From a virus: DNA of 5,581 nt. Within the stretch, counting starts at the first letter, position 1; each line of letters opens with the position of its first letter. Location of the stretch: IMG/VR virus record IMGVR_UViG_3300045988_004930. The stretch is one strand, 5' to 3'. Position numbers and translations under genes: made by a program. Shown one piece after another: positions 1,314 through 5,581 of the stretch. Below the pieces are notes generated by a model that searched no databases, had not been told where the DNA came from, and saw nothing but the letters and a program-made list of their open reading frames with translations.

Positions 1314-2120
1314 ATGGGATTAGCAGCAATCGGCAGCGCGCTACTCGGAATCGGCAAACAACTACTTCCAACGATCGCCGGAGGATTCATAAACAAATTC
1401 ATAGGCGGAAACCTGATGGAGAGCAACGGGGGGAGCAGTCAGCACAACGAAAGCACAAGCCAGGGAGGCGGCCAAAGCAGCAGCGCCAGCGGCGTAAACC
1501 GAGAACAGAACCTACAAGACTGGAACAGCATGCTAAGTGCAATTCAAGGCAATATGCAAAGCCAACAGAAGTTTAACCGTCGAAGCATGTTCGAACAGAT
1601 GGGCTATAACACCATGGCGGCAATCACTCAGGGTGTATATAACCAAATAAGCAACAACGCAGCAATGTCCTACAACAGCGCACAAGCAGCCAAAAACAGA
1701 GCTTGGCAAGAGCAAATGAGCAATACATCTTATCAGCGAGCTGTGGAAGACATGCGAAAAGCCGGCATCAACCCTATCTTAGCGTATCAGCAGGGCGGAG
1801 CAAGCACTCCGGGAGGTGCACAGGCTACCATCAGCGGCGCGAGCATGGGTCTCCCAAGCAGTAGTGCGGCAACAGCAAGCGCTCTCGGAGTAAGCCAAAA
1901 CCACAACAACACATGGAGCAAAAGCGAAAGCAACTGGTACAACGCAGCACAAGCGGTTGGAGACGCTACAAGCTGGTCGCACACAAGCGCAGACAAAGCG
2001 TTAAAGGCGTTCGAAAACGTCCTGGGCCAGCTGGGAAGCCTCACAAACAACAATTCCAAAGACAGATCAACGAAAGACAAAGACGGCTTTGGAGGAAGCC
2101 AAGGAGGAAAATTTAAATAA
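1314..2120 (+). CDS. VP2 minor capsid / DNA pilot protein (268 aa)
   Basis: Hydrophobic N-terminus MGLAAIGSALLGIGKQLLPTIAGGF, a G/S/Q/N-rich low-complexity body, and the conserved gokushovirus VP2-type segment SYQRAVEDMRKAGINPILAY. The ORF-track start at 1248 is GTG and lies inside the hairpin cluster. ATG 1314 is the first ATG and follows the hairpins. Stop TAA at 2118-2120. Confidence 0.82.
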   Translation: MGLAAIGSALLGIGKQLLPTIAGGFINKFIGGNLMESNGGSSQHNESTSQGGGQSSSASGVNREQNLQDWNSMLSAIQGNMQSQQKFNRRSMFEQMGYNTMAAITQGVYNQISNNAAMSYNSAQAAKNRAWQEQMSNTSYQRAVEDMRKAGINPILAYQQGGASTPGGAQATISGASMGLPSSSAATASALGVSQNHNNTWSKSESNWYNAAQAVGDATSWSHTSADKALKAFENVLGQLGSLTNNNSKDRSTKDKDGFGGSQGGKFK

Positions 2121-3139
2121 TGGGGTGTAACAAACCGTTAATCCGGTTTTATGTACCTCACGATAGAGAGGCGAGTGGGCGAGTGTACTCACTCGCTTCT
2201 TTTAACAAGATTCATAAAACCAAAATGAAGTATGAAGACCTGATGTACCGTAAAGATGTAATGATGATACCGTGTGGACAATGCACAGGATGCAAACTAC
2301 GCAAACGCAAAGACTGGGCAACACGAATGGAGCTGGAAGCATACGGCCACAACAAAGAAAGCATCTGGTTCATCACACTGACCTATGATGACAACCATGT
2401 GCCAACACAGGACACGGAAACAGGGGAAATCTTCAAGGGAGGCGTGAATGTATGGAGAGACGCCTCAGAGCGTCCTAGAACGGTGCAAACTTTAAGCGTG
2501 GAGGATGTCCAGTTATTCATGAAAAGGCTTAGAAAGGCCGTCAGCGAACCTCTCAGGTACTTTCTGGCAGGAGAGTACGGGGACAACACCTCAAGACCAC
2601 ACTATCACATGATATTGTACGGATGGAATCCAGACGACTTAAAGCCGATTCATAGGCTGTCAAGGTTTGGACACTACACGAGCGATAAACTGGTCAAAGT
2701 CTGGGGACAAGGAACAGTTGACATAGCTCAAGCAACGCCAGAAACGTATAACTACGTAGCTGGATATGTGACCAAGAAGCTGTACGGAAACGACAGAGAC
2801 AAGTATAAGAAAATGGGACTCATGCCGCCATTCTGCGTAATGAGCCGAAAGCCAGGACTCGGAGACGAATGGTTCCAAAAGAACCAAGAGAGGCTATGGC
2901 AACTTGGATACATCCAGCTGACAAACGGCAAGAGAGCAGCCATTCCAGAATATTACTGGCGAAAGCTGGAAGCTGAAAATCCTGAAAAGGCGTGGAGAAT
3001 CAAGCAGTATCGACAAGAGAAAGCCATTGCGTCCCTAATCGAAAGAAACATGGAAACTGACAAACGGTATGCCGAACAAATGGCCGATAAAGAAGCAATC
3101 ATGAAGAAGAAGATGTCCAAAGCAAAGGGCGTTTTTTAG
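2120..3139 (+). CDS. VP4 replication initiation protein (phiX174 gpA-like HUH rolling-circle endonuclease, 339 aa)
   Basis: Motif I FITLTYDD. HUH motif RPHYHMILYG (HYH codons at 2600-2608). Two-tyrosine motif YNYVAGYVTKK (2747-2779, YxxxY as in phiX174 A protein). N-terminal IPCGQCTGCKLRKRKDW cysteine cluster. SD aaggagga at 2101-2108. The ATG overlaps the VP2 stop (TAATG). Confidence 0.95.
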   Translation: MGCNKPLIRFYVPHDREASGRVYSLASFNKIHKTKMKYEDLMYRKDVMMIPCGQCTGCKLRKRKDWATRMELEAYGHNKESIWFITLTYDDNHVPTQDTETGEIFKGGVNVWRDASERPRTVQTLSVEDVQLFMKRLRKAVSEPLRYFLAGEYGDNTSRPHYHMILYGWNPDDLKPIHRLSRFGHYTSDKLVKVWGQGTVDIAQATPETYNYVAGYVTKKLYGNDRDKYKKMGLMPPFCVMSRKPGLGDEWFQKNQERLWQLGYIQLTNGKRAAIPEYYWRKLEAENPEKAWRIKQYRQEKAIASLIERNMETDKRYAEQMADKEAIMKKKMSKAKGVF

Positions 3140-3148
3140 CTCTGGTGT

Positions 3149-3197
3149 CACTCAGCCAAGTAACTATCAAGTATATATACTTGGCTGAGTGTTTTTT
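3149..3197 (+). terminator. Rho-independent terminator after rep
   Basis: cactcagccaagta (3149-3162) pairs perfectly with tacttggctgagtg (3178-3191). This is a 14-bp stem with a 15-nt loop (actatcaagtatata), followed by TTTTTT (3192-3197), 10 nt after the Rep stop. Confidence 0.8.
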
Positions 3198-3207
3198 AGG
3201 TTTATCA

Positions 3208-3250
3208 GCACGCGCACGCACGCGCACGTAATCGCGCACATGCGCGCGCG
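3208..3250. repeat. Alternating purine-pyrimidine CG/CA tract (Z-DNA-prone) with tandem CACGCGCACG x2 and internal inverted repeats
   Basis: Perfect R-Y alternation at 3208-3230 (23 nt) and 3233-3250 (18 nt). CACGCGCACG occurs at 3209-3218 and 3219-3228. aatcgcgc (3230-3237) is the reverse complement of gcgcgatt (3246-3253). The tract is followed by the AT-only run atttttattatattattattta. Confidence 0.85.
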
Positions 3251-3278
3251 ATTTTTATTATATTATTATTTACTTGTT

Positions 3279-3293
3279 GTAGTCGTAGTAGTA
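3279..3293. repeat. Short trinucleotide repeat (GTA)5 with one variant unit, preceded by a (TTA)-rich tract at 3251-3272
   Basis: gta gtc gta gta gta read directly at 3279-3293. Confidence 0.8.
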
Positions 3294-3298
3294 GGGAG

Positions 3299-3474
3299 TG
3301 TTGAAATGTTGAATACTATAAATTTTTATCCTTGGAACGATATTTTGTGATTAATTTTGATGTTGATAATTTTGTGGAAAACTTGTTAAATTGTTGAAAG
3401 TGTAGCAATATGCACAAAACCATTTGTGCAACTTTTTGTGGAAAACCTGTTGAAAGTGTTGAAAGTGTTGAAAA
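3299..3474 (+). repeat. Iteron-like array: eight same-orientation TGTTGAAA-type 8/9-mers plus a duplicated 18-mer TTTTGTGGAAAAC(T/C)TGTT
   Basis: TGTTGAAA 3299, TGTTGAAT 3307, TGTTGATA 3361, TGTTAAAT 3384, TGTTGAAAG 3392, then a perfect tandem TGTTGAAAG TGTTGAAAG TGTTGAAAA at 3448-3474. The 18-mer occurs at 3370-3387 and 3434-3451 (17/18 identical, 64 bp apart). Confidence 0.9.
3411..3430. promoter_or_regulatory. Perfect palindrome TGCACAAA-acca-TTTGTGCA (candidate operator, recombinase core or DNA hairpin)
   Basis: The 8-bp arms are exact reverse complements around a 4-nt spacer. It sits between the two 18-mer copies. An extra half-site, ATGCACAAAA, recurs at 3597-3606, just upstream of the -35 box at 3612. 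Confidence 0.6.
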
Positions 3475-3483
3475 AGCAATTAA

Positions 3484-3633
3484 GGCCGTCCGGCGAGCGA
3501 AACCGGAAAGTCACGTCATGCTCTTCGTACGGCGCACCGCGCCTAGCGCATGACCTTTTAGATGAACGGAGATGCAAAACAATTCGATTGGGAAAAATGC
3601 ACAAAAGAGGCTTGACGAGCCTCTTTTTTTTTT
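3484..3633 (+). ncRNA. Candidate small structured RNA (or ssDNA complementary-strand origin): GC-rich hairpin block plus intrinsic terminator
   Basis: 3484-3555 is about two-thirds G+C (48/72) inside AT-rich flanks. Hairpin A is tccgg 3489-3493 / ccgga 3503-3507. Hairpin B has an outer stem gtcatgc 3515-3521 / gcatgac 3548-3554 and a nested stem ggcgc 3531-3535 / gcgcc 3539-3543. The terminator hairpin is at 3603-3627, followed by T10. There is no credible ORF and the upstream promoter is only weak (TTGTTA 3383-3388, 17 nt, CAATAT 3406-3411). This call is a hypothesis. Confidence 0.25.
3603..3633 (+). terminator. Strong rho-independent terminator (possibly bidirectional)
   Basis: aaaagaggct (3603-3612) pairs perfectly with agcctctttt (3618-3627) around the 5-nt loop tgacg. 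The T run extends to 10 T (3624-3633). The upstream A-tract gives a U-tract on the opposite strand too. Confidence 0.8.
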
Positions 3634-3640
3634 ATATACT
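3612..3640 (+). promoter_or_regulatory. Near-consensus sigma70-type promoter for the small-gene/VP3/VP1 operon
   Basis: -35 TTGACG (3612-3617, 5/6), exactly 17-nt spacer, -10 TATACT (3635-3640, 5/6). The predicted transcription start is near 3647. The next SD-preceded gene starts at 3827. Confidence 0.55.
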
Positions 3641-3826
3641 AAAGGCAGTTAAACAGCTCAGAAGTACATTTAACGAATTCCATTTTTACAAAAATAACTT
3701 TACGAAAGAGGTGAATTGCTCTGACCATCCAAAAAATCAAAACGCTGTTTAACAACATCCAGAAAATCCTTGCAATGCTGGACAAAATCTACCATGCCGT
3801 AACAAACAACGGACAGGAGACTTAAC

Positions 3827-4057
3827 ATGATGGAGACCAAACCGTGGAATGTAAGAGATCAGACCGACGAGAACCTTATGCAGGAGTTGACGAAAATCTA
3901 CAAAGCGATAGACGCCGCATACAGTATGATTCGAAAGGCCGCAACAATCGAAGACGCAAAGTATTATATTGACCTTGCGTTCCGAAAAAAAGCACTCGCC
4001 AGCAACATTGAGGTGGAAATCCTCAGAAGGGAAATCAACCATGGCAAAGAGGAGTAA
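3827..4057 (+). CDS. Hypothetical small protein, 76 aa, predicted helical. First gene of the post-IGR operon.
   Basis: ATG 3827 is preceded by SD aggag (3815-3819, 7-nt spacer). The ORF is uninterrupted and its 3' end overlaps the next gene by 17 nt. I recognise no family. Confidence 0.6.
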   Translation: MMETKPWNVRDQTDENLMQELTKIYKAIDAAYSMIRKAATIEDAKYYIDLAFRKKALASNIEVEILRREINHGKEE

Positions 4058-4959: not shown

Positions 4960-5581
4960 ACAGAAACAAAGACGCGGGGTTTAATCAGGTTCCGAGACTG
5001 GACATTACGCGAAGTCGCTTCAAACGGCGGCAGGACGTCAAGCTAACCATGAACGCGGGCCAGCTTATTCCGTTCTACGTGGATGAAGTGCTCCCGGGTG
5101 ATACCTTCAGCATCGACCAAGCAGCAATTATCCGAATGACAACTCCTATCTTCCCGGTTATGGACAACTGCCACATGGATATTTACTACTTCAACGTACC
5201 GTGTCGTATCATCTGGGACCACTTCAAACGGTTTATGGGCGAAAACGATGCTGGGCCGTGGACACAGACTCAGGAGTACACCATTCCGCAGGTCAAAGTG
5301 ACCGGAACACCAGAAAAACCGGCACCTTATGAGGGCAGCATCATGGACTACATGGGCATTCCTACCAAGGTGAGCAAAGGAGCTGATACTGCATTCAGCG
5401 TAAATGCATTACCATTCAGAGCCTACGCTATGATTTGGCAGGAGTGGTTCCGCGACCAGAACGTGGACAATCCGGCAATCAACAGCACCACAGACGCAAC
5501 CGTAAACTATACGGATGATGAAACAAAGGGCATGGACGCAACAACGCCTAACCTTGAGTACATCCTTCAGAACGCATACAC
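4956..5581 (+). CDS. Major capsid protein VP1, N-terminal part (open at the window end, continues at base 100 of the circle)
   Basis: Hand translation gives MNRNKDAGFNQVPRLDITRSRFKRRQDVKLTMNAGQLIPFYVDEVLPGDTFSIDQAAIIRMTTPIFPVMDNCHMDIYYFNVPCRIIWDHFKRFMGEN..., with no stop through 5581. This is the classic Microviridae VP1 N-terminus. SD aaggagg at 4939-4945. It is absent from the ORF track because it has no stop inside the window. Confidence 0.93.
   Translation, partial: MNRNKDAGFNQVPRLDITRSRFKRRQDVKLTMNAGQLIPFYVDEVLPGDTFSIDQAAIIRMTTPIFPVMDNCHMDIYYFNVPCRIIWDHFKRFMGENDAGPWTQTQEYTIPQVKVTGTPEKPAPYEGSIMDYMGIPTKVSKGADTAFSVNALPFRAYAMIWQEWFRDQNVDNPAINSTTDATVNYTDDETKGMDATTPNLEYILQNAY
5483..5581. repeat. 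Terminal redundancy, right copy (identical to 1-99)
   Basis: 99/99 identity to 1-99, read directly. Confidence 0.95.

Follow-up and report, generated by a model that had tools for sequence, protein, structure and literature searches.

Introduction

The complementary-strand origins described for single-stranded DNA (ssDNA) coliphages are the PriA primosome assembly site of phiX174, the primase origin of G4 and the RNA-polymerase origin of M13/f1. Gokushoviruses dominate the ssDNA phages of the human gut, and hardly any of them is culturable; to our knowledge, no replication signal has been defined for any gokushovirus. In this regard, we analyzed the gokushovirus genome in IMG/VR virus record IMGVR_UViG_3300045988_004930 (5,581 nucleotides (nt); this whole stretch of DNA is called the window), and specifically a GC-rich hairpin block in its intergenic region. 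The original prediction had joined this block to a downstream terminator as a three-hairpin module (3484-3633), and had ranked a phage small RNA (sRNA) about equally with a complementary-strand origin. We found that 3484-3556 is a cis-acting DNA element and not a gene, and that it forms an interchangeable cassette at a fixed site. Judged from sequence comparison, we tentatively propose that its 40-nt core hairpin may serve as a host-specific single-strand initiation signal, namely a complementary-strand origin, which would be modular like the single-strand origin (sso) cassettes of plasmids.

Like the coliphage origins, the core is an intergenic hairpin of the packaged strand in non-coding DNA, and the different types share little sequence; recognition by host rather than phage factors, and not being strictly essential, would be further likenesses. 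However, the core has no sequence or covariance-model similarity to the phiX174, G4 and M13 origins, and unlike them it is exchangeable and stands beside DnaA-trio and DnaA-box motifs, which are not known in those phages. The phiX174 complementary-strand site is cited in PMC9865509, in which conserved intergenic hairpins with compensatory substitutions in reekeekee- and roodoodoo-microviruses are cautiously proposed as negative-strand origins (PMC9865509, section 3.8). Those hairpins resemble the core as sequence-conserved intergenic DNA hairpins with compensatory changes, but they belong to different clades and have different sequences, and neither modular exchange nor DnaA motifs were reported there.

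The sso elements of plasmids are modular, orientation-specific and host-specific (PMC5703833). The cassettes of rolling-circle plasmids (ssoA, ssoU, ssoT, ssoW, ssoL; PMC5703833; PMC4598088) are swapped independently of Rep, as is the gokushovirus block. They are folded ssDNA signals, orientation- and host-specific and dispensable at a cost, which is the kind of role proposed here for the hairpin. A further system, the A site of the ABC-primosome, is an ssDNA hairpin with a DnaA box in its stem that supports the conversion of ssDNA to double-stranded DNA in vitro (Masai and Arai, cited in PMC6127211). DnaA boxes likewise lie 40-150 nt from the gokushovirus hairpin on the packaged strand, and inverted boxes in a sister lineage form such a hairpin; unlike in the A site, the boxes of the window have the same orientation and are largely unpaired, and the GC hairpin itself contains no DnaA box. 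The bacterial basal unwinding system is the closest match to the surroundings of the block, not to the hairpin.

Results and discussion

A conserved 40-nt hairpin in the GC-rich block

The 72-nt block stands out from an AT-rich context as originally described, with 66.7% G+C at 3484-3555 and flanks of 28.5% and 31.7%. It contains two hairpins.
3489-3507, + strand: hairpin 1 (TCCGG / CCGGA, 9-nt loop), the variable leader of the cassette, seen in the RNA and DNA centroid folds
3515-3554, + strand: 40-nt core hairpin, the 'type 1' block, with outer stem GTCATGC/GCATGAC, inner stem GGCGC/GCGCC and loop ACC

Relatives are designated by locus labels (L001, L013, L095 etc.) and come from IMG/VR, GenBank and metagenome collections. 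Intergenic matches were found in 44 GenBank phage records, and pattern scans for the central 40-mer returned about 90 IMG/VR contigs and 54 metagenome contigs, nearly all of them microvirus-sized. In 158 microvirus loci, the core occurs in only 26 distinct versions. It differs at 0-3 of 40 positions across genomes whose VP4 (Rep) is between 96% and about 40% identical to that of the window, and it is 90-96% identical, compared with about 70% for the neighbouring non-coding DNA.

The stems change in a complementary way. Pair 2-39 is seen as T-A, T.G, C.A and C-G, a compensatory change with both single-step intermediates, and one lineage has T-A in place of C-G at pair 3-38 together with G-C in place of A-T at pair 4-37. 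A search with a covariance model built on the core retrieved a distant homologue, 'type 5' (L204, E = 9e-4; L123, E = 7e-3), in which the outer stem is wholly replaced by GGCCGC/GCGGCC and the leader AAAGTCAC, the CTTCG loop and TAGCGC are kept. Most of the remaining variation of the core falls at unpaired positions, and the most polymorphic of them, 14 and 32, sit in internal loops; a pairing between these two was considered and is unsupported, with C.C among the commonest combinations. The predicted 7-bp outer stem, 5-bp inner stem and 3-nt loop were all recovered. The internal loop between the stems is asymmetric (TCTTCGTAC / TAGC), and the additional C-G pair once placed in it has to be dropped, since its bases (alignment columns 45-68) do not pair in 37 of the 66 relatives.

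We take this second hairpin as real because of its conservation and compensatory changes, not because of its folding energy, and on these two grounds it is a stable non-coding hairpin maintained by selection. Protein coding was also considered. The alignments reject it for the block, in which hairpin 1 has 2-nt indels and which is swapped wholesale in sister genomes, and for the core, which shows no third-codon pattern and in which about 40% of relatives have TAC in place of the in-frame TAG at 3551-3553. The inner 21-mer gave only 7 chance matches in 185,579 bacterial genomes, all in high-GC genomes and without the outer stem, and blastn of the core against 72,556 plasmids gave no match.

Exchange of hairpin blocks at a fixed site

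At least six exchangeable hairpin blocks, the core among them, are found at the same site, which lies between promoters and a non-transcribed, origin-like region. Close relatives, with VP4 89-92% identical, carry an unrelated block at the equal position, or none in the case of L113, and genomes with VP4 only about 40% identical carry the type 1 block. Further block types were retrieved by a scan for upstream repeats. Several of them are laid out as a small GC hairpin followed by a larger nested hairpin. Their folding z-scores of -3.8 (type 2), -6.6 (type 3) and -6.8 (type 7) are far beyond chance, and type 2 shows a compensatory change of its own. Block type is therefore decoupled from Rep lineage, which speaks for a signal that a host factor recognizes and against a viral-strand (+) origin tied to Rep.

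Most relatives have a variable 'cargo' gene with its own promoter just downstream of the block. The core is retained where both have been deleted, the window included, and it is therefore not merely an upstream element of that promoter. The GC hairpin region is the sole stretch of the genome with terminators upstream (3149-3197, 3230-3260) and promoters downstream. The site is predicted to be the promoter-proximal edge of a bacterial-origin-like, non-transcribed region, which would be the least-transcribed part of the genome.

A possible initiation signal for the complementary strand

In Microviridae the packaged strand is the gene-sense strand, and we infer that the hairpin functions in single-stranded form and takes part in priming. 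The 40-nt hairpin would stay folded on the packaged (+) single strand, with single-stranded-DNA-binding protein coating the remaining DNA. The hairpin could then be recognized through its invariant unpaired bases CTTCG, ACC and TA-N-CGC by the priming machinery of the host, whether primase, RNA polymerase or a primosome of the PriA or DnaA type, and once recognized it would start complementary-strand synthesis. Recombination would exchange the hairpin much as rolling-circle plasmids exchange their sso cassettes. Such a role is compatible with all data and is the part of the original prediction that we prefer; its grouping with hairpin 1 and the terminator did not hold.

Several points weigh against this reading. 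L113 (IMGVR_UViG_3300045988_012026, VP4 92% identical) has neither a block nor a cargo promoter, which is either a viable natural deletion, with a bearing on essentiality, or an assembly artefact; its repeats run directly into the cargo ORF (open reading frame). Hairpin 1 folds as predicted in the RNA and DNA centroids, but it is not conserved structurally: across 66 distinct relatives 78.8% of its alignment cells are paired and 21% unpaired, one pair is unpaired in 30 of the 66, the breaks are uncompensated, covariation is not above shuffles, and the variants include CCGA, CCAG and 2-nt indels. Folding 3470-3640 with RNA and DNA parameters, as originally suggested, reproduces the hairpins at an energy within chance (z = -1.36 for RNA and -1.86 for DNA); the 87-nt module gives z = -0.61 when folded alone, and only the whole intergenic 3140-3640 is significantly structured (z = -2.8, none of 100 shuffles as good).

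The covariation itself is narrow. In the 66 relatives, formal covariation of the core does not exceed shuffle controls because its stems hardly vary, and the compensatory support comes from a few lineages and one distant homologue. Uncompensated single mismatches occur in L080/L084, L081, L082, L083/L085, L094 and L098. Compensatory substitutions among homologues, by which the original prediction proposed to judge its three hairpins, are thus found in the terminator, narrowly in the 40-nt hairpin and not in hairpin 1. The loops of the core are as conserved as its stems, so duplex recognition or recent horizontal spread could explain part of the conservation. Many loci come from a single IMG dataset and some contigs are in both collections, and the locus counts therefore do not equal counts of independent lineages. 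The DnaA boxes of the window are direct repeats that lie mostly outside predicted stems.

The core is also no member of ssoA. The recombination site B (RSB) sequence TTATGCCGAGAAAAYTT, which is present in the ssoA sequences of pT181, pE194 and pC194, has no match in the window at up to 3 mismatches, and conserved sequence 6 (CS-6, TAGCGW) is absent from 3140-3830. The TAGCGC at 3544-3549 lies in the internal loop and 3' arm, with a third base that varies (G, C or A); the CS-6 of ssoA is placed in the terminal loop. As to size, the RSB-to-CS-6 part alone takes about 50-67 nt in pT181/pE194/pC194 and the ssoA element is longer, and the gokushovirus element is 72 nt. A CS-6-like 'TA-N-CGCA' motif across block types is short, variable and post hoc, and was not relied on.

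Finally, another hairpin of the same intergenic region competes for this role.
3149-3197, + strand: post-Rep hairpin with T-run (terminator T1) and invariant loop CTATCAAG

The CTATCAAG loop is found in 112 of 123 genomes on covarying 10-16-bp stems from at least three unrelated sequence families, and this pattern of stem and loop at 3149-3197 exceeds the needs of a terminator. As a candidate for the complementary-strand origin, the universal hairpin at 3149-3191 is equal to the core or better. The complement of its loop reads CTTGATAG, on the non-packaged strand, and resembles CTTGATA, which we take to be the nick-site core of phiX174 and pC194-type replicons.

An origin-like region upstream of the block

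The most interesting finding of this work is a DnaA-trio/box module that lies just outside the coordinates of the block.
3251-3279, + strand: AT-rich stretch that precedes the trios
3280-3294, + strand: DnaA-trio consensus TAG TCG TAG TAG TAG, followed by a GGAG spacer, the box-like TGTTGAAAT, and GTTGAATAC to 3316
3361-3474, + strand: TGTKGAAA repeat array, 11 matches against 3.3 expected
3373-3381 and 3437-3445, - strand: two consensus DnaA boxes (TTTTCCACA on the - strand) within the TGTKGAAA array
3411-3430, + strand: conserved hairpin formed by TGCACAAA/TTTGTGCA, variable in its loop and immediately 5' to the second DnaA box
about 1847-1880 of L015: paired inverted DnaA boxes, also in L010, L019, L025 and L037, 61-86 nt upstream of the core

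Within the window the TAG pattern occurs only once, and none of 200 shuffles matched it. At least three consecutive TAG triplets stand at the trio site in 76 of the 88 core-bearing genomes, compared with 2 occurrences in their remaining 455 kb. In the same 88 genomes, TTWTNCACA reaches 7.08/kb in the 260 nt upstream of the core versus 0.11/kb elsewhere, a 64-fold difference, and perfect TTATCCACA is present 49 times upstream of the core and 0 times elsewhere. The trio/box module accompanies every hairpin-block type.

A basal unwinding system has been defined by at least 3 DnaA-trios (3'-NAN-5', consensus GAT) not more than 16 bp from a DnaA box with at most 2 mismatches (PMC8287927). The window has such trios with a 4-nt spacer, and the adjoining box is imperfect (2-3 mismatches): TGTTGAAAT has 2 mismatches to TGTGNAWAA and 3 to TGTGGATAA. 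Of 76 core-bearing genomes, 17 have TGTGGAAAA as this trio-proximal box, as do many genomes in which the block is of another type. The order of AT-rich stretch, trios, short spacer and box is the same as in the published system (PMC8287927), and the order AT-rich/(TAG)n/4-nt spacer/box is that of C. difficile oriC2 (5'-CACC CTA CTA CTA TTA CTA CTA-3' on the other strand; PMC7561715). The polarity is also that of the E. coli DNA unwinding element (DUE), DUE-GC-TGTGGATAA (DUE-R1), as checked on the MG1655 sequence. The locus differs from bacterial origins in that it belongs to a 5.5-kb ssDNA phage, its proximal box has 2-3 mismatches and its motifs are predicted only; bacterial origins, for their part, have no equivalent of the GC hairpin cassette.

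In a sister lineage (VP4 about 42% identical), the inverted DnaA boxes TGTGGAAAA ... TTTTCCACA pair with each other in the ssDNA fold of 13 genomes, with a probability of 0.96-0.99. The equivalent boxes in the lineage of the window have a mean pair probability of about 0.3-0.5.

None of the papers searched links Microviridae with DnaA boxes, and we know of no member of Microviridae that recruits DnaA. One possible, though doubtful, interpretation is that 3250-3556 represents a captured bacterial-type DnaA-dependent origin, made up of an AT-rich element for unwinding, trios on the packaged strand, the box array and, last, the exchangeable hairpin. This hairpin would provide the host-specific site at which complementary-strand synthesis is loaded or primed. 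If this is true, gut gokushoviruses would recruit host DnaA and exchange the hairpin module upon a change of host. E. coli is probably not the host; leaders rich in Shine-Dalgarno (SD) sequences and extended -10 promoters suggest a Firmicutes-like host.

Two further sequences adjoin the trios. The first, TACTTGTTGTAG at 3271-3282 (AACTTGTTGTAG in most relatives), is found almost universally where the AT-rich stretch gives way to the trios. Its AACTTG resembles CAACTTG, presumably part of the phiX174 viral-strand origin, and 3271-3282 is a candidate nick site for Rep at which DnaA would unwind the DNA. The second is an alternating CG/CA tract at 3207-3253 (CACGCGCACGCACGCGCACG ... CGCGCACATGCGCGCGCG) directly 5' of the AT-rich stretch. 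It is prone to form Z-DNA and folds into a hairpin followed by a T-run; it is conserved in most lineages and block types and is missing in the L013/L015/L019 group.

Cargo remnant, terminator and downstream promoter

Downstream of the block, the window holds three overlapping features.
3565-3615, + strand: remnant of a deleted cargo gene, its last 16 codons NGDAKQFDWEKCTKEA and the stop TGA at 3613-3615
3603-3633, + strand: intrinsic terminator of the deleted cargo gene, stem AAAAGAGGCT/AGCCTCTTTT, then T10
3612-3640, + strand: predicted promoter of the downstream genes, TTGACG in the terminator loop, 17-nt spacer, TATACT, score 10/12

Nearly all relatives have a strong promoter (TTGACA-17-TATAAT, often with an extended -10) 20-50 nt past the GC block, which scores 12/12 in L015 and 10/12 in L018. 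It is followed by a Shine-Dalgarno sequence, a variable cargo ORF of 60-75 amino acids (aa) and then the terminator. The three hairpins of the original prediction therefore do not form one unit: relatives place a promoter and a cargo ORF (200-500 nt) between hairpin 2 and the terminator, and the module is composite. In the window, the cargo remnant is decayed and lacks both a promoter and a ribosome-binding site; its sequence NGDAKQFDWEKCTKEA corresponds to the C-terminus, TGDAKQFDWAKCTKEA, of the 65-aa cargo ORF that L095 carries intact. Independent cargo deletions with differing breakpoints are found in L020, L035, L072 and L074. The cargo slot (3556-3615 in the window) is hypervariable, with many unrelated 60-75-aa ORFs (L001, L002, L018, L029, L095 and others), each with its own strong promoter and SD sequence, and it has repeatedly been lost by deletion.

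The predicted terminator hairpin with its T10 run was recovered by our scan, at 3603-3627 with 11 pairs and T10 to 3633. Terminator-like sites number 6 in the 1-kb region, versus 1.0 +/- 1.0 in shuffles. The terminator stem covaries (GAGGC/GCCTC, GAGGG/CCCTC, CAGGGC/GCCCTG, GGGGG/CCCCC, TAGGC/GCCTA, GGGGAC/GTCCTC), and at least seven complementary versions of it occur among the relatives. All relatives have the invariant TTGAC[AG] with a TAnnnT/C hexamer 17 nt later. Genomes without cargo often lack the terminator stem and still keep this promoter (L013, L016, L083, L098), and the cargo stop TGA falls within its -35. We thus read 3603-3640 as a terminator fused to the predicted promoter of the downstream genes, and not as the 3' end of an RNA derived from the hairpins.

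Alternative explanations

Exchange of DNA at this site could itself be the function. The 40-mer and the terminator-promoter hairpin would then be the left and right junctions of a hypervariable cargo cassette, across which genes are shuffled by homologous recombination or by template switching at the hairpins; promoter-stem-loop cassettes are reportedly known in T4-type phages. The region downstream is indeed hypervariable, with unrelated cargos and independent deletions that break just after the core, and the same core stands alongside different upstream repeats and cargos. Its sharing across Rep lineages about 40% identical implies horizontal exchange, and one metagenome contig seems to join two strains at the core. 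However, recombination accounts for the spread of the core and not for its invariant sequence and pairing, and it leaves unexplained why non-homologous hairpins always occupy the same slot. We consider it unlikely; it is compatible with an initiation signal and may be its by-product.

A protein could also bind the core as duplex DNA in the replicative form, with the core being an operator, an insulator or a cruciform-forming inverted repeat that regulates the adjacent promoters or limits the spreading or unwinding of DnaA oligomers from the origin-like region. Base-specific recognition fits the equal conservation of loops and stems, GGCGC-N3-GCGCC has the typical shape of a palindromic operator, and the core lies at the boundary of the DnaA-box array and, in most relatives, 20-50 nt upstream of a strong promoter. 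Yet the distance from the core to the -35 varies from about 21 to more than 50 nt, the core is retained where that promoter is deleted, and there is no conserved phage regulator because the cargo genes vary. The stems change complementarily (wholesale in type 5) and the unpaired motifs are fixed, which a folded single strand fits better, and the alternative blocks have an architecture in common, not a sequence. A duplex site seems rather improbable to us.

The sRNA of the original prediction would be a regulatory RNA of about 120-200 nt whose stem-loops end at the 3603-3633 terminator, and we now regard it as highly unlikely. In its favour, the hairpins and a strong intrinsic terminator are on the coding-sense strand, where T.G wobble intermediates are tolerated. 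Microvirus terminators are leaky, as established for phiX174, and read-through RNA could include the hairpin. The promoter evidence upstream is as weak as was first thought, however: the sole candidate, at 3363-3392, scores 9/12, its -10 is lost in relatives, and a positionally conserved upstream promoter was not found in three relatives (L018, L015, L070). Two terminators stand upstream of the block. Between hairpin and terminator, relatives have a 10-12/12 promoter, an SD sequence and a protein-coding ORF, of which the spacer in the window is a leftover, so that the terminator belongs to the cargo gene; it also overlaps the promoter of the next operon, and the hairpin persists in genomes that lack the terminator stem. 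The Rfam scan, which had been suggested as a check, returned nothing in 3484-3600 with Rfam 15 even at E <= 10 and no gathering-score match in 8 related genomes, and ARAGORN found no tRNA or tmRNA.

Equally far-fetched is a viral-strand (+) origin nicked by VP4 within the core. The core is the most conserved non-coding 40-mer, and HUH nucleases often nick within hairpin loops. Nevertheless, near-identical Reps (89-92%) are found with another block or none and Reps about 40% identical share the block, the most polymorphic positions, 14 and 32, are the ones in internal loops, and 3271-3300, nearly universal with AACTTG beside the trios, is a better candidate. The phiX174 origin 18-mer, which we take to be CAACTTGATATTAATAAC, has no match in the window at up to 3 mismatches.

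An integration attachment site (dif-like/XerCD-type or another attP) is the least credible reading: some gokushoviruses do integrate via dif motifs in non-coding DNA (PMC7062461), and a 16-kb contig joins microvirus DNA to genes like those of integrative and conjugative elements (ICEs), its microvirus unit flanked by two core copies, but a search of the window with the degenerate 28-bp dif consensus, allowing up to 3 mismatches, found nothing. Conservation does not extend 3' of the core, and none of the 185,579 bacterial genomes contains the core. In the contig, the ICE junction lies 135 nt upstream of the core, and the two core copies have different neighbouring sequences to the left and to the right, as a mixed-strain or chimeric assembly would.

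The contig in question, OGYO01000869.1 (16,174 nt; L236 and L264), contains more than one microvirus unit joined to ICE-like genes for a topoisomerase, a CD1107-like mobile-element protein, NlpC/P60, a TraG/VirB4-like ATPase and TrbL_2. Its ICE side also has TGTTGAAAA-like repeats, and its junction DNA gave no plasmid match. It is probably a mixed or chimeric assembly, and it could also be a clue to a Firmicutes host or an integration event.

Genome setting and other observations

The first 99 nt of the window are repeated at 5483-5581, and the window is therefore a circular gokushovirus genome of 5482 nt. It has about 80% nucleotide identity to gokushoviruses from human, monkey and pig faeces. 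Its long ORFs are exclusively on the + strand.
4956 across the junction to 1171, + strand: VP1 ORF
ending at 2120, + strand: VP2 ORF
2120-3139, + strand: VP4/Rep ORF

The GC-rich block lies in a 690-nt non-coding region between the VP4 stop and the next ORF (3827). Just before that ORF, at 3715-3825, there is a conserved small ORF (…LTIQKIKTLFNNIQKILAMLDKIYHAVTNNGQET*) with synonymous-type variation among relatives. In the window it has no ATG, GTG or TTG start, and ATT at 3715 or CTG at 3721 follow an SD-like AAAGAGGTG; KT264790 has an in-frame GTG at the start site in the alignment. The leader of this small ORF and its start are covered by a perfect 10-nt inverted repeat, GTTAAACAGC / GCTGTTTAAC (3648-3657 and 3744-3753), with its arms 86 nt apart and the first arm kept in nearly all relatives. 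In the VP1-VP2 intergenic region, 1235-1312 holds two hairpins and a terminator (CCTCAGCTGAG..., GCCCGGGG...CCCCGGGC, TTTT) with a sub-threshold Rfam match to the anti-hemB sRNA (24.1 bits against a gathering score of 49.5, E = 0.021), which is most likely a mere likeness between terminators.

Implications for gokushovirus biology

The core appears not to have been described before, and it appears to belong with the known intergenic hairpin signals of ssDNA phages and not to form a new class. One false lead is removed, namely an sRNA gene at the block. In its place stands a testable element of only 40 nt. Across phages whose Reps are about 40% identical, it is conserved more strongly than any gene, and it is one of several interchangeable modules beside DnaA-trio- and DnaA-box-like motifs. 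If the block types are host-specific priming signals, they could provide host-range markers for uncultured microviruses, and synthetic microvirus genomes could be built with them. Use of DnaA, if real, would be a new route of replication start for an ssDNA phage.

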